DNA of 64,000 bases, from NCBI GenBank assembly GCA_965213705.1, contig OZ243913.1:608001-672000 (forward strand), in the 5' to 3' direction. This document shows positions 56,348 through 64,000 of the stretch, one piece after another. Both the position numbers and the translations under genes were made by a program. Under the pieces are notes generated by a model. The model ran no database searches, had not been told where the DNA came from, and saw only the letters and a list, made by a program, of their open reading frames with translations. Source of the DNA: Trueperaceae bacterium (GTDB taxonomy: Bacteria; Deinococcota; Deinococci; Deinococcales; Trueperaceae). Within the stretch, counting starts at the first letter, position 1; each line of letters begins with the position of its first letter.

Positions 56348-56549
56348 GGGCGTCAGAGGCCCGCGCCCACGCGGAGGTCGGCGACGCGGCCGAACAGGTC
56401 GGGCGGGTTTGTCTCGAAGCTCGAGTACGGCATAAAGCCAAGTTTAACCCTGCCGAGCCAGCGCCTTTGGGCGGCGTCCAAACATGTCGAAAATTCCCCA
56501 ACCCTCGAGCCTGCGGTTTTCTAAACTCACAGGATACTTTTTCTGGAGG

Positions 56550-58637
56550 ATGACCAATAACGTGACGCGCAAACTCGATTCCCGCTTCTTTTTGTGTGCC
56601 TTGGTGCTGTCCTTGACAGCTTTGCTAGGTGCCTGCGGCCAGTCCCAAAAGCCGGACGCCGCGGCCGGACCCGAACTGCTCGTGTTGCTGGGCGACCAGA
56701 CCCGCACGGTCACCGGCGACAGCGTCGTCGTGGTGGGCGCGGTGGGCGACGCGAACCTCAAAAGCCTCGGCTACAGCTTGAATGGGGGCGAGGTTCAAGA
56801 CGCCCTGAACGCCCTGAACGAGAAGAGTTTTCGGCTTACCGTGACCGGCTTGAAGTTGGGCGAAAACACCGTCGTGGTGACGGTTGCCGACAAGACCGGG
56901 GCCACGGCGAGCGCGTCGCTTGCAGTCGAGGTGACGTCTGCAAACCCCAACTTCCCGAAGCTCGAGGGCTCCTGGTCCGACGCCGCGGTGACGACGAGCC
57001 TGTGCGGCCAAACCGACGCCGTGACGGTGACGCTGTCGTTCGACGCGTCCAGGGCCGACGGGCTCGTGGTCGGTTTGTGGCAGGTGGTGAGCAGCGGCTA
57101 CGGCGGCCAGAGCGCGGGCTCGTTCGCGGGCACCGTGACTGCGGCGGGCAAGTTGACGGGTGTGGCGACGCTCGTTTTGGGTCAACAACCGGCCCGTTAC
57201 AACTTCGACTTCAGCGTCAGCGCCGAAAAGATTGCGGGCACCCTGACGTCCCAAGAAAACCTCGGCTGTGACAACGGCCAGCGCCAAAGCTCGAGCCTGA
57301 CGGTCACGCTCGTCCCACTCCAAGACGACGCCTTCGAACCGAACGATACGCCCGAAAAAGCGACCCAGGTCGGGTTGGACTTTGCGGCGACGCTTGAGTT
57401 GTTGGGCGGTGACGCGGACTGGTTTACCTTTACGCTGAGCGAAGCCAAACTCATGACCTTTGCGCTCAGCGGTTCGGCCAATCCCTACGCCCCGCTCGAC
57501 CTGCGCCTGCTGGACGCGTCTCTGTCGGTTCTTTTCAACACCGCGTCGTACGACGCGACCGCGTTGCAAACGGGGCTGACGGCGGGTACTTACTACGTCT
57601 CCGTGACCTCCGGGTCTTTGGCTCACCAAAGCTACAGCCTGAAGTTTACAAACGCAGCCTTGCCGGACGCTTCCTCCGAACCGAACGACACCTCGGCGCA
57701 GGCCGGCAAAGTAACCTTGCCGTTCTCGGGTGACTTTTACCTGACGCCTGGGGACGAGGACTGGTTCACCTTTACCTTGAACAAAACCCAACTCGTCACC
57801 TTGTACTTGGGCGACAATTCTTACAACCTCGAGTACGAGTTTTTGAAGGGTAACTTGACGAGCGTGAGCAGCGGCTACTACTACGGCGGCGCTGTGACCC
57901 GGTCGCTCGGGGCGGGCAGCTACTTTTTACGGGTGCGCTCACCTTTCGGTCAAACCCAAGCCTACCCCCTGACCTTGAGCACCGCGCCGCTGCCCGACGC
58001 GGAGTTTGAACCCAACGACACCTTCAACACCCCGAGCAAGGTAAGTTTGCCCTTCTCCGGCGACTTTTTTATCGACCCGCGAGACGAGGACTGGTTTGAA
58101 TTCACCTTGGGCAGCGAACAGCTCGTCACTTTCAGGACTATCGACCAGGTGAATTTACAAGCCACGCTTTTCAAGAGCAGCGGTGCCGACCCGCAAGACT
58201 TCTACCTCGGCGCAAACGGCGCGCTCGCCCTGTTGGGGGCGGGTACTTACCGGCTCAAGCTGTTCGCCGGCGAAGCTTTCGCCTACTCGCTCGCCATCAC
58301 CAAAGAAACGTCTGCGGACAAAACCTTTGAGCCCAACGACACGCGCGCCACGGCTACGCCCGTCACCCTGAACTTTGCCAAAACAAAGTTGCTTACAAGC
58401 TACCAGGACCCGGACTGGTTTACCTTTACCCTGAGCCAGGGCAAGGAGGTCGCGTTCGACCTGAGCACCGCGTCGGGCAACGCCTGGGGGTCGCTCTACA
58501 AAGGAACCGACGAGTCCTACCTGGACAACGTCTACCCCAACAGTCCCCGCTCCTACGTGCTGACGGCGGGAACTTACTACCTCAACGTGTACGGCGACAC
58601 TCTCACCAAGTACGACCTCACGATAAACGCGCCCTAA
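56550..58637 (+). CDS. large lipoprotein: Ig-like domain plus four PPC-like repeats
   Basis: Lipobox LLGAC; four copies of D-x2-3-EPNDT...DxDWFxFTL. Confidence 0.85.
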   Translation: MTNNVTRKLDSRFFLCALVLSLTALLGACGQSQKPDAAAGPELLVLLGDQTRTVTGDSVVVVGAVGDANLKSLGYSLNGGEVQDALNALNEKSFRLTVTGLKLGENTVVVTVADKTGATASASLAVEVTSANPNFPKLEGSWSDAAVTTSLCGQTDAVTVTLSFDASRADGLVVGLWQVVSSGYGGQSAGSFAGTVTAAGKLTGVATLVLGQQPARYNFDFSVSAEKIAGTLTSQENLGCDNGQRQSSSLTVTLVPLQDDAFEPNDTPEKATQVGLDFAATLELLGGDADWFTFTLSEAKLMTFALSGSANPYAPLDLRLLDASLSVLFNTASYDATALQTGLTAGTYYVSVTSGSLAHQSYSLKFTNAALPDASSEPNDTSAQAGKVTLPFSGDFYLTPGDEDWFTFTLNKTQLVTLYLGDNSYNLEYEFLKGNLTSVSSGYYYGGAVTRSLGAGSYFLRVRSPFGQTQAYPLTLSTAPLPDAEFEPNDTFNTPSKVSLPFSGDFFIDPRDEDWFEFTLGSEQLVTFRTIDQVNLQATLFKSSGADPQDFYLGANGALALLGAGTYRLKLFAGEAFAYSLAITKETSADKTFEPNDTRATATPVTLNFAKTKLLTSYQDPDWFTFTLSQGKEVAFDLSTASGNAWGSLYKGTDESYLDNVYPNSPRSYVLTAGTYYLNVYGDTLTKYDLTINAP

Positions 58638-58775
58638 ACTCAACCCGGATGGTTTACGAAAGACGCCGCGCGGCGTCGTGGCTGAACCGAGTCGAGCAAA
58701 GCGAGCTTGGGAGCGCCGGCACGACGCCCCCGACGGGTTGGGTATACTGGGTCTCGCAACTTTTCGGGAGGACAC

Positions 58776-59360
58776 ATGACGAGACCGTTACACACGCCTT
58801 TGGCCCACCGCCTGCTGCCCGGAGTCAGCCCGGTGCTCCGGGCCCTTTTGCAAATTGTCGGCGGCGTCGCGCTGCTTGCGCTGCTCGCACAAGTCCGCGT
58901 CCAAGTCGGGCCGGTGCCCCTGACCGGACAGACTTTGGGCGTGCTGCTGGTCGGGGCGGCTTACGGTACCCGCCTCGGCACGACGACCCTGGCAACCTAC
59001 CTTCTGGTGGGCGCTTTGGGTTTGCCCGTTTTTCAGGGTGCCGCGTCGGGTTGGGCTTACATGTTGGGCGGCACGGGCGGTTACCTGCTCGGCTTTGTGC
59101 TGGCTGCCGCGCTGGTAGGGTACCTGGCTGAACGCGGTTGGGACCGGCAGTTCGGGCTTGCAGCGCTCGCCATGCTGCTGGGCAACGTGCTCATCTACGT
59201 GCCCGGCCTGTTGTGGTTGAGCCGTTTCGCACCCGACTGGGCGACGACGCTGCAGTGGGGCCTGACCCCTTTCGTCGTGGGCGACCTGCTCAAGCTCGTC
59301 ATTGCCGCAGGTCTGCTGCCAACGGCCTGGAAACTGTTGGGAAGCGAAAAGGGTCGCTAA
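58776..59360 (+). CDS. bioY: biotin transporter BioY
   Basis: PVPLTGQT, GLPVF, TGGYLLGF and PFVVGD motifs. Confidence 0.95.
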   Translation: MTRPLHTPLAHRLLPGVSPVLRALLQIVGGVALLALLAQVRVQVGPVPLTGQTLGVLLVGAAYGTRLGTTTLATYLLVGALGLPVFQGAASGWAYMLGGTGGYLLGFVLAAALVGYLAERGWDRQFGLAALAMLLGNVLIYVPGLLWLSRFAPDWATTLQWGLTPFVVGDLLKLVIAAGLLPTAWKLLGSEKGR

Positions 59361-59376
59361 ACCGAGCACCCATTTT

Positions 59377-59422
59377 TACCAAAAAGGCCGACGTTTGGTA
59401 CCAAATGTCGGCCTTTTTGGTA
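59377..59422. terminator. bidirectional terminator (46-bp near-perfect palindrome)
   Basis: TACCAAAAAGGCCGACGTTTGGTACCAAATGTCGGCCTTTTTGGTA between convergent genes. Confidence 0.85.
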
Positions 59423-59433
59423 CAGCTCAACTT

Positions 59434-60474
59434 TTAGGCTTTGGCGACGACTTGGTTACCGCCGACCGTCTGAGCGCGCTCGAGCCCTTCGTCGGCCATG
59501 CGGACGAGTTCTTCGGGATTGTGCAAAAAGTGCTGAGGGTTTAAGGGCTCGTGGGAAGCCACGCCGACGCTCAGACTGAGTTTGCGCCCCGCGCCCGCCG
59601 GGTGGGGCAGGTCCAACGCGGCGACTTCGCCGACCAAACGTTCGGCGATGGCCGCCGCACCCAGGTGGTCGGTGTCGGGCAGGAGAATGGCGAAGCGGCC
59701 TTTCTCGAGTCGCGCGACAAGGTCTGTCGAGCGGTAAAGGGCCTTGTCGAGCACGCGCGCCACGGTAACAAGCGCGTCGCGGTCGCGTTGCGGGCCGATG
59801 CGGTTGTCGTGCGGTTGAAAGGCGTCGATGCTTAAGCGAAGCAGCGACAGCGGAAACACCTCGGCCTGGGCGCGCCGAAACTCGCGGCGCAGCATGTGGT
59901 CGAAGTGCTGCTGCGAGGCGAGGTTGGTCAGCGGGTCGGTCAAGGCGAAACGCACCATCGTGCGGTGGTGTTCGTCCAAACGGCGACCGAGTTCGAACTG
60001 CGTCACGGCCAAGCCGACAAACGAGGCCAGCAGGGTCATGGCTTCCACCTCGCCCTGCGAGTAAAGGCGGCTCGCCGCGTTGCGCACGCTCAGCGCGCCG
60101 CGCACGGCGCCGTCGGTCGTCACCGGCACGCCCAGAAAAGCCCCGCAGCCGTCGTCGGGAAAAACGAGCGCAAGTTCCACGTCGCGGTTGTCCAGGTCGG
60201 GTACGACCAAGGCCGCGTCGTGCTCAACAAGCCAGCGGCTGGCCGCGTCGTCGTCTTGCAGCGTGTGTACCGTGTCGCTGCCCCGAACCAGCCTGCGCTG
60301 CAGCGCGTCCTCCAGCACGAGGCAAGCGCGGTCGCTGCGGGTCCACGCCGCCGCCAGGGCGGTCAGGCGCTTAAAAAAGTTGGCGGGCTGGGCACCGTTC
60401 ACGTCACGGCAGAGCGTGCTCAGTTCGTTGAAAAAGGCCGCTTTGTCGGTCGGGGTCAGGGCTGAGTCGGTCAT
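59434..60474 (-). CDS. GAF plus degenerate GGDEF domain protein
   Basis: ALTDPLT and LSLSVGVA motifs; active site reads EKGRF; RSTD at the I-site position. Confidence 0.88.
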   Translation of the reverse strand: MTDSALTPTDKAAFFNELSTLCRDVNGAQPANFFKRLTALAAAWTRSDRACLVLEDALQRRLVRGSDTVHTLQDDDAASRWLVEHDAALVVPDLDNRDVELALVFPDDGCGAFLGVPVTTDGAVRGALSVRNAASRLYSQGEVEAMTLLASFVGLAVTQFELGRRLDEHHRTMVRFALTDPLTNLASQQHFDHMLRREFRRAQAEVFPLSLLRLSIDAFQPHDNRIGPQRDRDALVTVARVLDKALYRSTDLVARLEKGRFAILLPDTDHLGAAAIAERLVGEVAALDLPHPAGAGRKLSLSVGVASHEPLNPQHFLHNPEELVRMADEGLERAQTVGGNQVVAKA

Positions 60475-60522
60475 ACCTTTTACAGTAGCGCGTCAGGCAG
60501 AAGAACGGAGTTAAATTGTTCC

Positions 60523-60558
60523 AAAAAAACACCTCTCGAGTCCTAGACTCGAGAGGTG
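60523..60558 (-). terminator. intrinsic terminator
   Basis: CACCTCTCGAGT-ctagg-ACTCGAGAGGTG followed by TTTTTTT. Confidence 0.9.
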
Positions 60559-60686
60559 CGGATACCCGCCTGGTACTGAGGGGAACGTGGTCCCTGCCTC
60601 AGCGGAGGCGTACCTTAGTTACCCTCGACGGGTACCTCCACTGGCCTTTAAATGTTTACTAATTAGGACCACCTCCTTTCTGTGGT
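60523..60686 (-). ncRNA. candidate stand-alone structured small RNA (or micro-ORF mRNA) with an extended Shine-Dalgarno at its 5' end
   Basis: TAAACT -10 box at 60699-60694; AGAAAGGAGGTGGTCC; internal hairpins; 12-bp stem plus U7 terminator. Confidence 0.6.
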
Positions 60687-60958
60687 AAGAAACAGTTTAC
60701 ACCAAAAAACGTTTTTTTGCATGTATATCCGCTTACGTTTTGGGCCTATATTTTGGACCTACGTTTTGGACAGGAGGGTTGCAGCTTCCCAACTGGCCGC
60801 CCCGCGCCTTGTAGGTTCGGTGTAACGAAAAACGTTTACACGAACTGGTGCGTCTTTCGACCCTGGGGTACACTGGGAGTAGACTCCGAGGTAGCGGCTG
60901 TGCAGCGCGGAGACGCGTGACAACCTGTTTTCGGATACCAGTTTGTGTGGAGGCTCGA

Positions 60959-63049
60959 GTGCTCACGCTTGCAGAAAAACTTGTCTTTGTGGTGTTCGCG
61001 GCGGTGTGCTTTTACTACGCCTACACCGGTTTTAGAAAAGTCGTGCTGGCGGTGATGCGGGGCGGCGGGAGTTATTACCCCCGCTTCGACCACTTGCCGA
61101 GGCGTTTCGGCGAGGCGATCACCAGGACCGTCTCACAAGTGACCGTGTTCCGCGACCGGCCCGTCGTGAGCTTTTTTCACAGTTTTATCTTTTACGGGTT
61201 TATCTACTACTTGGTGGTCAACGTGCTCGACGGCCTCCGCGGAATGGTGCCGCCCGGTTTGTGGGAAGGCACCGAGTTCGGAGCGTTGGGCGGCCTGTTC
61301 CGTTTGGCGACGGATGTTTTGTCGGTGCTCATCCTGGTCGGCGTGGTGTTCTTTTTGGTGCGGCGCTTTTTGGCTCGTGACCCCCGCTTGGACCAGAACG
61401 AGAAAACGGTGCTCCACGAAAAAGTGAAACTCGGCAGCATCAAGCGCGACAGCCTTATCGTCGGGACGTTTATCCTGCTGCATGTGGGGTTTCGCCTGGT
61501 CGGCGAGGGCTTTTTGTTAGCGAGCGAGTACCAGCGCGACCCGTGGCAGCCGTTCGCCTCGGCGCTGGCGTCTAGCATTGGCTACGGCGACGGGCGGGTG
61601 GTCGGTTGGCACGTCGGCTGGTGGGGAGCCATCGGGCTCATCTTGCTGTTTTTGCCTTACTTCCCCCGCAGCAAGCACCTGCACCTGTTCGCGGCCACCT
61701 TTAACTTCGCTTTTGAGCGGCGGTTTGAAGACGGCAGCAAAGTGTCGACCGGCGCGCTGGCGCCCATCGACTTCGAGGACGAGTCTATAGAGCAGTACGG
61801 GGTAGCGAAGTTAGAGCAACTGCGCCAGCCGCAACTCCTAGACCCTTACGCCTGCATCCAGTGCAACCGCTGCAGCAACGTTTGTCCGGCCAACGCGACC
61901 GGCAAAGCGCTGTCCCCGGCGGCCCTGGAAATCAACAAGCGCTACGAACTCAACTCAATCCTGCCCGAGTTTGCGGCGGGCGCAGAAAGTCCGCGCGAAC
62001 TGACCGAGTTCGCCCTCAGCACCGAGGCGCTGTGGGCCTGCACGGCTTGTGGGGCCTGCATCGAAATCTGCCCGGTCGGCTGCGAGCAGATGATTGACAT
62101 CATTGACATCCGCCGCGACCAGGTGATGATGAAAGGCGAGTTTCCGAGTGAACTCAACGCGGCTTTTCGCGGCATGGAGCGCACCGGCAACCCCTGGGGC
62201 ATCTCGCAGGACAAGCGCTTGGAGTGGGCTGAAGGTTTGGACGTGCCCACGGTTCAAGACACCCCCGATTTCGAGGTACTGTTCTGGGTCGGTTGCGCGG
62301 GGAGTTACGACCCGGCGGCGCAAGCTACGACGCGGGCGTTTGTTCGGATTCTCGAGCACGCCAACATCAACTACGCGGTTCTCGGCAAGGCCGAAAAGTG
62401 TACCGGCGACCCCGCCCGGCGTGCGGGCAACGAGTACCTGTACTACGGCCTCGCTGCTGAGAACGTCGAAACCCTGAACGCGGCCCTCATCAGCGACTTA
62501 GACCCCGCCAAGAAAAAGCGTGTCGTCACGACTTGCCCCCACTGCTTCAACGCGCTGTTTAACGACTACCCGCAGCTCGGCGGCGACTACGACGTGGTTC
62601 ACCACACGCAGTTTATCGACATGTTGCAAAAAGCGGGCAAGCTGCCGCCGCTTAACGCCTCCCAAAAGCTCACCTACCACGACCCTTGTTACTTGGGCCG
62701 TCACAACGGCGTCTACGACGCGCCGCGCGACATCCTCAACAGCGGCGCGGGCACCGTCACCGAGATGCCCCGCAACCGCAACAACGCCTTTTGCTGCGGC
62801 GCGGGCGGGGCGCAGTTCTGGAAAGAGGAAGAACCCGGCACCATGCGCGTGTCCGAAAACCGCTTCCGCGAGGCGGTTTCCACCGGCGCGGCGGTCGTCG
62901 CCACCGGCTGCCCCTTCTGCCGCGTGATGCTTCAAAGCAGCGACAGCGCCGAGGCTGAGGGCGCACCCGAAGTGCACGACGTGGCCCAGCTCGTCGCCCA
63001 GAACCTGGAACGGATTCAGGCGAAGTTGGCCGCCGAACATCAAGCGTAA
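60959..63049 (+). CDS. membrane-bound Fe-S oxidoreductase (FadF/HdrD-like)
   Basis: TM domain with SKHLH; CIQCNRC, CTACGAC, HDPC and CCG motifs. Confidence 0.93.
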   Translation: MLTLAEKLVFVVFAAVCFYYAYTGFRKVVLAVMRGGGSYYPRFDHLPRRFGEAITRTVSQVTVFRDRPVVSFFHSFIFYGFIYYLVVNVLDGLRGMVPPGLWEGTEFGALGGLFRLATDVLSVLILVGVVFFLVRRFLARDPRLDQNEKTVLHEKVKLGSIKRDSLIVGTFILLHVGFRLVGEGFLLASEYQRDPWQPFASALASSIGYGDGRVVGWHVGWWGAIGLILLFLPYFPRSKHLHLFAATFNFAFERRFEDGSKVSTGALAPIDFEDESIEQYGVAKLEQLRQPQLLDPYACIQCNRCSNVCPANATGKALSPAALEINKRYELNSILPEFAAGAESPRELTEFALSTEALWACTACGACIEICPVGCEQMIDIIDIRRDQVMMKGEFPSELNAAFRGMERTGNPWGISQDKRLEWAEGLDVPTVQDTPDFEVLFWVGCAGSYDPAAQATTRAFVRILEHANINYAVLGKAEKCTGDPARRAGNEYLYYGLAAENVETLNAALISDLDPAKKKRVVTTCPHCFNALFNDYPQLGGDYDVVHHTQFIDMLQKAGKLPPLNASQKLTYHDPCYLGRHNGVYDAPRDILNSGAGTVTEMPRNRNNAFCCGAGGAQFWKEEEPGTMRVSENRFREAVSTGAAVVATGCPFCRVMLQSSDSAEAEGAPEVHDVAQLVAQNLERIQAKLAAEHQA

Positions 63050-63072
63050 AGAGCGTCTTGCTTCCTCAACAA

Positions 63073-63147
63073 GGGGAACTTGCTTCTGCGGCTACCTCTA
63101 TAGCGAGTGTGCAGAAGCAAATCCCCCAACCCCCTTGTTAAGGGGGC
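63073..63147. repeat. REP-like compound inverted repeat
   Basis: GGGGA-a-c-TTGCTTCTGC...GCAGAAGCAA-a-TCCCC, plus CCCCCTT-gtt-AAGGGGG. Confidence 0.55.
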
Positions 63148-63185
63148 TTCAACGCTGGGTTAGGCTTGGTTCTCGCCAGGTCAAA

Positions 63186-63746
63186 TCAAACGTCGCTGGG
63201 CGGTTGCTGCCAGTTCGTCGTTTTCGCCCACAGGTGCCCGCCCGCCATCAGCACGTCGAACACGGGGTCTTTGATGTCGTAATACCCCTCGACATCATCG
63301 GGAAAATAGCGGGCTAGTTGGCGCTTGACTTCGGCGTAGGCGTTCGCCGCCATCGGATGCGCGCGCAAGTAGTCGCGGCAAACGAGGGCGTAGCGCTGGT
63401 TGAAACGGCCCAGAACGCGAACATGAACGTGCAGGTGCGGCGACTCGCTCGAGAAGTAACGCTTTTCGAGCTGTTCCGGCGCTAGGTTCATTCCCGGCGG
63501 GCCGTGGTCGCGGTCGTAGGTTCGAAACGTCAAGCCTAAATCCTCAAAAGCTGCGCGAAACGGCAAACTGAAGTCCGCAACCGTCAGCTGAACGTCGATA
63601 ATGTCTTTGGCCGCCAAACCCGGCACGCTGGTCGAGCCGATGTGGTGAATCGCCAGCGCGTTGTCTCCCGCCGCTTCGCGCAAACGTGCGCCGAACGTGG
63701 CAAAGTGCTCAGGCCAACCTTCTTGATAAGGAACAATTTCAATCAC
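63186..63746 (-). CDS. GrpB family protein
   Basis: HIGSTSVPGLAAKDIID and RDYLRAHP...Y...K motifs. Confidence 0.93.
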   Translation of the reverse strand: MIEIVPYQEGWPEHFATFGARLREAAGDNALAIHHIGSTSVPGLAAKDIIDVQLTVADFSLPFRAAFEDLGLTFRTYDRDHGPPGMNLAPEQLEKRYFSSESPHLHVHVRVLGRFNQRYALVCRDYLRAHPMAANAYAEVKRQLARYFPDDVEGYYDIKDPVFDVLMAGGHLWAKTTNWQQPPSDV

Positions 63747-63773
63747 TTGAACGAGCTTAACAAGTCTCGAGCC

Positions 63774-63998
63774 TCAGTCTCGATTCTCCTCCAACCACTT
63801 CACCGCCCAATCGACCAGTGGGCGCTGCCGCAAAAAACGCGCCTCGGCCCGCCCGACGCTGCACACCGAGATGTCGTGCGCCGCCTCGTAAGCCTCGCCC
63901 AAGGCCTCGAAGTCCTCGTCGTCCCAATCAATCCGCCGGTACGCCACCCACTGCCGCACGCCGTCCACAAACACGGCCGAGCCCTCGTCCAGGTAGGT
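63774..63998 (-). CDS. AAC(3)/YokD family acetyltransferase, C-terminal part; truncated by the window end
   Basis: GSAVFVDGVRQWVAY...DFEALG...VGRAEAR...QRPLVD. Confidence 0.8.
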   Translation of the reverse strand, partial: TYLDEGSAVFVDGVRQWVAYRRIDWDDEDFEALGEAYEAAHDISVCSVGRAEARFLRQRPLVDWAVKWLEENRD

Positions 63999-64000
63999 TT

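Follow-up and report, generated by a model that had tools for sequence, protein, structure and literature searches.

A predicted stand-alone RNA with an extended Shine-Dalgarno sequence and a non-AUG micro-ORF in Trueperaceae

The element and its complement to the 16S rRNA tail

The window, a stretch of 64,000 nucleotides from the genome of a Trueperaceae bacterium (contig OZ243913.1), carries near its end a predicted small transcript flanked by a GAF-GGDEF gene and a divergent oxidoreductase gene (Table 1). The element is single-copy in its genome, folds better than its shuffled versions (z = -3.99) and is matched at contig positions 668522-668686, with 150.7 bits, by the covariance model R1, which was built from 30 copies. 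The TAAACT box is present as claimed in a preliminary description of this DNA, 7 nt ahead of the predicted 5' end (ACCAC, from 60686). A TAnnnT box occupies the corresponding position ahead of the predicted +1 in 25/25 distinct family copies, against one of 25 control windows, and a sigma70 scanner looking for two-hexamer promoters returned 0 sites at the element. The CTGAGG...CCTCAG stem was found as well, and the terminator, described as a 12-bp hairpin with U7, does have its hairpin and seven T, although the terminator scanner counts 14 pairs in the hairpin proper (60529-60559). The start of the GAF-GGDEF gene is, as had been proposed, of the leaderless type. As a prediction, a stand-alone, conserved, structured and probably ribosome-binding small transcript is thus supported.

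Table 1. Features of the element and its neighbours, in window coordinates (SD, Shine-Dalgarno)
Feature	Position	Strand	Basis
Predicted transcript, 164 nt, ACCAC to U tract	60523..60686	-	sequence, folding; covariance model R1
-10 box TAAACT (predicted promoter)	60694..60699	-	sequence; conserved TAnnnT
Extended SD (SD1) AGAAAGGAGGTGGTCC, 16-nt complement of own 16S 3' end, one G-U	60666..60681	-	
Micro-ORF, ATT start, 14 codons ISKHLKASGGTRRG + TAA	60619..60663	-	frame and AUH start conserved
Second SD-like GGAGGT (SD2)	60634..60639	-	sequence
P1 5' strand CCAC	60682..60685	-	covariation in non-Deinococcota homologs; compensatory family variants
P1 3' strand GUGG	60638..60641	-	covariation; invariant in 30/30 family copies
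P2 5' strand GGUACCCGUC, starting inside the second GGAGGU and inside the ORF	60627..60636	-	
P2 3' strand GGCGGGUAUC	60561..60570	-	
Post-stop internal anti-SD GGUACGCCUCC, can pair with SD1 or SD2	60604..60614	-	
Variable, poorly aligned internal hairpin P4, CUGAGG...CCUCAG	60576..60602	-	folding
Intrinsic terminator hairpin + U7	60523..60559	-	scanner; covariation
GAF-GGDEF gene, neighbour outside the unit, own TACTGT-N7-ATG	59434..60474	-	Pfam PF01590/PF00990
CCG/4Fe-4S oxidoreductase gene, divergent neighbour	60848..63049	+	Pfam

Elsewhere in the genome there is a look-alike of the terminator hairpin (G000:C1, 2766892-2766928, E = 0.004) and a 22-nt look-alike of the junction between the anti-SD and P4 (G000:C1, 2640501-2640522, E = 0.18). 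Within the window, a plus-strand ORF of 717 aa (56484-58637) has a lipoprotein-like N terminus and several repeated segments of the EPND... type.

The 16-nt complement with one G-U pair, proposed at first against a typical 16S 3' end, is borne out by the 16S gene of the same genome, which ends in GGATCACCTCCTTTCT. A screen of the 6335 GGAGG sites of both strands gave 16 contiguous pairs with the 16S tail only for the antisense strand of the rDNA and for the element; their duplex energies are -28.4 and -27.8 kcal/mol, respectively, and the next best site reaches -23.7 kcal/mol. Some family members have a degenerate extended SD, reaching only -19.5 kcal/mol at the weakest, and therefore the full 16-bp duplex is not required. 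In three loci of one genus (L219-L221, from G028-G030), the SD is shortened to AGTTTGGAGGTGGTCT, P1 is changed, and the ATT start and the frame are kept; this genus is a natural test of the need for a long complement.

Conservation, reading frame and folding

The 14-mer AAAGGAGGTGGTCC is found in 44 of the 128 family genomes, while controls gave 4 hits. Model R1 gives exactly one match in 113 of the 128 genomes (a tally that takes in the unpublished genome G089), and it finds the element in 73 of 79 high-quality family genomes and in 35 of 36 genera; L095, a Trueperaceae record, carries the same element. Near-invariance across 35 of the 36 genera excludes a relic, and the proviso of the preliminary description that this might be the decayed 5' end of an ordinary gene did not hold. 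In a 121-genome sample of the phylum, strong R1 matches were found in four genomes from three small genera of a sister family, probably the Deinococcaceae, and no R1 match came from the largest sister genus, probably Deinococcus, which contributes 63 genomes to the sample. Hits in 6 of 42 probable Thermaceae genomes were weak and chance-like (E from 3e-4 to 0.02), and the three of the six that were read (L287, L288, L290) resemble ordinary ribosome-binding or coding sites. Since the element was not found in the largest sister genus and none of the hits in the probable Thermaceae is convincing, it is dispensable in close relatives.

The next gene in 101 loci is a convergent bioY (27), a co-oriented thioesterase-like gene (11), a GAF-GGDEF gene (8) or another gene (54), the sequence being too short in one case. 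All eight GGDEF genes have their own leaderless-type start (TAnnnT-N5-8-RTG), and an Fe-S oxidoreductase gene lies divergently upstream in 57 of the 101 loci. Because the next gene differs between genomes and is often convergent, the element is better seen as a stand-alone unit than as an attenuation device.

We examined 102 Deinococcota loci, 98 from the Trueperaceae and 4 from the sister family, 60 of them gathered after R1 had been built, and collapsed duplicates to 91 distinct copies. Their start codons are ATT (42), ATC (25), ATA (21) and CTG (3). The CTG trio belongs to the sister family, and an AUH start and the frame are kept in all 88 distinct Trueperaceae copies. The earlier statement that no ATG follows the SD is correct for the element, where the ATT frame ISKHLKASGGTRRG is present, and no ATG was found within 4-14 nt of the SD in any of the 91 copies. 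The start sits 8 nt from GAGG in 80 of these 91, and the ORF has 11-15 codons (14 here). In the AT-rich variable segment, in-frame stops occur in 0 of 80 distinct sequences, against 19 and 47 in the other two frames; when the segments are shuffled, 28.5 ± 4.1 have an in-frame stop, with a minimum of 15 in 5000. The variable-segment spacer is a multiple of three by construction; the distance from the SD to GGA, a measure independent of how that segment is anchored, is divisible by three in 80 of 91 copies. Because of the restricted start and the absent in-frame stops, we consider translation of the micro-ORF frame to be under selection. These frame statistics strongly favour one of the options of the preliminary description, an mRNA with a non-AUG micro-ORF, and as far as sequence can tell the element is not ORF-less.

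STAB-SD elements are SD-like sites near the 5' end, without a start codon, that protect the downstream mRNA. The element resembles them in its SD-like sequence near the 5' end, but it differs in that selection acts on its start and frame, a terminator of its own closes the unit and no conserved cistron lies downstream. Binding of ribosomes without initiation, the reading first offered by analogy with STAB-SD, is contradicted by the strict conservation of both the start codon and the frame.

A second comparison is with infC, the gene for IF3, which in E. coli has an autoregulatory AUU/AUA start. The gene that we take, from a sequence motif, to be infC in the present genome appears to start with ATA 8 nt after GGAGG (G000:C1 near 3,212,130, minus strand), in the same geometry as the element, and this start has likely been missed by annotation that expects AUG. 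The strong SD with AUH at normal spacing that marks infC-type starts is present in the element as GGAGG-8 nt-AUH. Unlike in infC, the AUH start of the element leads into no protein-coding gene, so any feedback would have to go via the RNA or the micropeptide. An AUA start of infC and the control of such starts by IF3 have been described, together with their association with extended SDs and an output of ~10% of that of AUG in S. aureus (PMC13009471).

The N-terminal half of the peptide is hypervariable, and the C-terminal TSGG[AT]RRG is conserved. Silent sites are frozen in this conserved half (the last Gly codon is GGG in 83/83 copies, and Arg is CGT or CGC in 81/83), compensatory changes in P1 alter the residue (Gly to Glu in L219-L221, Gly to Arg in L222), and most Actinomycetota read the GAGGU motif in a frame that gives EV, not GG. 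Because the peptide sequence follows the RNA pairing, translation probably matters more than its product. The peptide looks secondary to the RNA, although the conserved C terminus could matter as a peptide.

RNAalifold, run on the family copies, picks the ACCAC/GUGGU stem, which is uninformative within the family because it is invariant. The 5-bp stem claimed to display the SD in its loop is not favoured, since its probability in the folded transcript is 0.00 and, outside the Deinococcota, its variable pairs form in only 60, 63 and 17 of 102 sequences. Across these non-Deinococcota homologs (102 distinct sequences), covariation links the 5' end to a block of four bases whose last is the G of GAGGU. 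The resulting helix, P1, is paired in 277 of 306 cells, against 157 ± 7 after shuffling (kinship makes the shuffle overstate significance), and slid registers give much lower values. P1 has many distinct compensatory pair types, some of them within the family (L219-L222, L224), and it loops out the SD, the start codon and initial codons. Its predicted probability is only 0.13 in the window RNA, and it is invariant in most family copies.

P2, which closes just before the terminator, is paired in 95.7% of cells in the family, with one pair changed on both sides (8 sequences); in other phyla a simple count lends it modest support (6.99 of 9 Watson-Crick pairs, against 5.87). All nine modelled pairs of the terminator have changed on both sides. 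A CCUCC-type anti-SD follows the stop codon in 68 of 83 copies; in the window RNA it pairs with SD2 with a probability of 0.66 and with SD1 with 0.17, and over 99 copies its duplex with SD1 averages -17.7, against -13.0 when shuffled. The second GGAGGT is present as had been claimed, but the stem proposed to hide it (GGAGGUACC/GGUAcgCCUCC) is only one of three near-equal conformers, which lie within 1.1 kcal/mol for the window RNA. From this modelling, a conformational switch is plausible.

Related RNAs in other phyla

Comparison with Rfam by Infernal, a check proposed in the preliminary description, gave a full-length match to Ms_IGR-5 (RF02471, model positions 1-184, E = 2.5e-5 per genome), although its 32 bits are below the 45-bit cut-off; the copy in L095 scores 29.3 bits. 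Over 121 genomes of the phylum, RF02471 had five hits, none above the cut-off, and it is insensitive here because it missed four of four other family genomes in which R1 finds the element. The two RNAs have the same order of parts: an A at the start, P1 in a common register, AAGGAGGUGGUCC, a spacer of 25-32 nt, GAGGU opening P2, a stop codon in the P2 region and then the terminator. Their alignment is gap-free over the first ~60 nt, and the Gaiella-type copies of Ms_IGR-5 have the SGG[TA] frame in common with the Trueperaceae. However, Ms_IGR-5 is annotated as non-coding, and most of its members have AUG, UUG, GUG or CUG starts and another frame (EVAAR). It also has a probable pseudoknot between GGAC and the terminator loop that is not evident in the Trueperaceae alignment, where the terminator loops are variable by eye. 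In the Actinomycetota (L069-L188), a mid-ORF GGAC is complementary to a stretch of the terminator region in 39 of 94 loci, against 8.1 after shuffling, and covaries with it in L150; this suggests a pseudoknot absent from the Rfam structure of Ms_IGR-5, whose GUCC/GGAC helix may be wrong. With an SD-less profile of five Gaiella-type loci, the element ranks 1 of 8 in its genome (E = 5.8), and with an SD-less profile of all 102 loci, 10 of 21 (E = 21). By their sequence, the five Gaiella-type loci are a bridge between the Trueperaceae and Ms_IGR-5, and we regard the element as probably homologous with Ms_IGR-5.

A GTDB scan for AAGGAGGTGGTCC-N22-32-GAGGT returned at least 120 matches. Among the matches listed, 118 of 120 were judged real (L090 and L173 were dropped as chance), and they come mostly from Actinomycetota of all classes, plus Rhodobacteraceae, Acidobacteriota and Deinococcales, with a Syntrophobacter, a planctomycete and an Eisenbacteria genome also represented. 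The matches listed have an ORF of ~11-18 codons starting 1-7 nt after GGTCC, and 8 of 20 loci tested among them pass the Ms_IGR-5 cut-off. The strict pattern occurs once each in 43 of 141 Actinomycetota genomes (four unpublished ones counted), with 2 control hits. None of 33 pattern hits in viral contigs had the architecture by inspection, and the rescored ones reached at most 13 bits. A metagenome scan with a GATC variant was too loose, with the architecture in 2 of 120 among the matches listed, and with a loose pattern in 121 Acidobacteriota genomes controls were as frequent as matches; that result was not used. Ms_IGR-5 is an sRNA of Actinobacteria expressed in Streptomyces (PMC8079986, PMC8780764), and the M. 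smegmatis IGR-5 is NAD-capped, with an A at +1, and uncharacterised (bioRxiv 2021.12.14.472595); nothing on IGR-5 was found in the accessible text of Shell et al. (PMC4633059).

CC2171 (RF01867), a Caulobacter sRNA confirmed by Northern blot in Methylorubrum (bioRxiv 2022.01.24.477521), has a layout like that of the element, in that it opens with an exact 16S-tail complement and a micro-ORF with an RTG start comes next, but it has a different fold and a longer ORF. Its model had no match at E<=10 within positions 58000-64000 of the window, and Rhodobacteraceae loci match it below the cut-off. An exact complement of the 16S tail and a micro-ORF with an RTG start are present in the alpha-proteobacterial matches of CC2171. 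A pattern search of Pseudomonadota gave matches in 37 of 251 genomes, and of 30 loci read, 29 have both features. The sequences of the two Rfam families are evidence that Ms_IGR-5 and CC2171 would also be extended-SD micro-mRNAs. CC2171 members and look-alikes (L299-L301, L439-L456) are RNAs with an extended SD and a micro-ORF of 14-31 codons, annotated as non-coding. Among the control genomes, Thermus thermophilus has a CC2171 signal, apparently below the cut-off, that could be the antisense strand of the rDNA or a real analog.

The preliminary description took the element to be undescribed; the same layout has been published as rreB/rreR (Hahn et al., RNA Biol; PMC5711450). Bradyrhizobium rreB has 165 nt, a 17-nt complement of 16S rRNA, a GUG start and 14 codons; it is mostly 30S-bound and weakly translated, and replacing its start by a stop lengthens the half-life from 10 to 37 min (PMC5711450). 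BLAST analogs are reported in that article only from four alpha-proteobacterial orders, and none of six taxa looked for is mentioned in the text of its supplement (figures aside). Like rreB and rreR, the element has a 16-17-nt complement of the 16S tail near its 5' end, a weak start codon, an ORF in the range of 14-18 codons and a terminator; from its conserved promoter and terminator signals, it is predicted to be a stand-alone RNA of ~165 nt as well. The rre complements are perfect and of at least 16 nt, and that of the element reaches 16 with one G-U. In the rre RNAs the complement runs into the GUG/AUG start, whereas in the element a 2-nt gap precedes AUU, AUC or AUA. An internal anti-SD is common to rreR and the element, but there is no peptide similarity, P1 is absent from rreR (5/18 cells), and the R1 scores of rreR loci are only 9-20 bits, where pattern hits due to chance go up to 13, so that no homology beyond the SD was found. 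By its layout, then, the element is a variant of the rre kind, one without the start overlap and without homology beyond the SD. New are the Deinococcota branch, the AUH start with infC geometry, the covarying helix that loops out the SD and the start, and the built-in anti-SD. In a literature search largely restricted to non-subscription sources, we found neither a described Deinococcota copy nor a link made between these families.

GTG frames of 14 and 18 aa among the loci examined match rreB and rreR in length and start. Loci of the rreR type (L093, L097, L098, L123, L170, L186, L295, L459-L465) carry, just upstream of the terminator, a mimic of the 16S tail with which their own SD can pair (for example GGACCACCTCCTTT, via L464), and 11 of 13 rows beat shuffles by 2 kcal/mol, one locus being counted twice. 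The ORFs of the rreB type (L457, L458) end in GCC CGC TAR (IAR-stop), many Ms_IGR-5 ORFs end in AAR-stop (L079, L107), and many branches have Arg at or beside the stop.

A proposed mechanism and its rivals

The reading we prefer, to which we give a probability of about 0.5, is that of a stand-alone rre-type micro-mRNA that traps 30S subunits with rare, IF3-gated initiation, and whose fate as an RNA is controlled by translation, which refolds P1 and P2. The parts of the element and their conservation, together with the frame, the start restriction, P1, P2 and the terminator, are established by comparison of its copies and homologs. Binding of 30S subunits by the predicted RNA is likely by analogy with rreB, and the 164-nt RNA would capture them through its 16-nt complement of the 16S tail. 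Beyond this point, we infer gating by IF3, switching and any output. Translation would be rare because the 14-codon frame starts with AUU, a codon normally expected to be rejected by IF3. In the free RNA, either P1 would hold the SD in a loop or the internal anti-SD would mask it, and 30S binding would displace either pairing. Where IF3 activity is low or the 30S is permissive, so that initiation succeeds, the ribosome would run through P1 and the 5' strand of P2, and its passage would refold the RNA and expose it to decay. The working output would probably be the state or abundance of the RNA, as a read-out of initiation stringency, with the peptide as a by-product.

Alternatively, the 14-aa peptide could be functional, with the extended SD and the AUH start serving only to hold its level very low, which seems rather improbable to us. 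The strictly kept frame and the conserved C terminus agree with such a product, and RreB and RreR have been treated as conserved small proteins (PMC5711450). Nevertheless, the N-terminal half is hypervariable, synonymous sites are frozen, residues change with P1 pairing, and the peptides and frames of Actinomycetota and alpha-proteobacteria are unrelated; moreover, synthetic RreB and RreR are unstructured (PMC5711450).

We find it unlikely that the RNA is a 30S sponge or hibernation RNA that sequesters subunits stoichiometrically, with initiation as an incidental event. The element has the strongest complement of the 16S tail in the genome outside the rDNA antisense strand and a leaderless-type start next door, and rreB is mostly 30S-bound (PMC5711450), but selection on the start and the frame is not expected of a pure sponge. 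This reading, raised in the preliminary description, is weakened by the observation that 20-fold overproduction left growth unchanged for rreB, which is far rarer than ribosomes (PMC5711450), and by analogy this argues against a simple sponge.

A similarly low probability goes to a trans-acting base-pairing sRNA, in which a ribosome at the 5' end would protect or license the molecule and the anti-SD and P4 would pair with ribosome-binding sites of target mRNAs. While the frequent post-stop anti-SD and the similar 16S-tail mimic in rreR would suit this role, the region after the stop is the most variable one, self-pairing explains the anti-SD, and an Actinomycetota-dominated set has no excess of SD1 complement (-15.0 vs -14.4). 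An action on immature 30S subunits or pre-16S rRNA, as a maturation checkpoint or a guide across the whole 3' tail, is very unlikely: the complement does reach GGAUC beside helix 45, farther than SD helices ordinarily go (12 bp, in a structure cited in PMC5711450), but the conserved start and frame would be left unexplained and the complement is degenerate in some copies. Hardly credible is attenuation of the downstream gene by a leader peptide, or the decayed gene end dismissed above, in spite of a leader ORF, alternative folds, a terminator and a co-oriented next gene in the window, given the varying next genes and the independent starts of the GGDEF genes.

The rre class was previously known from one paper and from alpha-proteobacteria only, and its layout now extends to the Deinococcota. 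Two orphan Rfam families listed as non-coding, of which one is expressed in Mycobacterium smegmatis and Streptomyces, are reinterpreted as giant-SD micro-mRNAs, and with this reinterpretation of Ms_IGR-5 and CC2171 their function becomes testable in model organisms with ribosome-profiling data. A natural SD duplex of 16-17 bp also bears on how far an mRNA reaches into the 16S tail and on how a ribosome escapes from such a site. Only tentatively do we suggest that rreB/rreR, CC2171, Ms_IGR-5 and the Deinococcota RNA form one cross-phylum class of housekeeping RNAs that sense the state of 30S and IF3 via a poor start. If true, this class would dock on the entire 16S tail and translate the stringency of initiation into a refolding of the RNA and a regulatory signal, and the Trueperaceae branch, AUH-locked like infC, would be the first non-protein-coding sensor of IF3. 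The strict AUH start leads to a specific and cheap hypothesis of IF3 gating.
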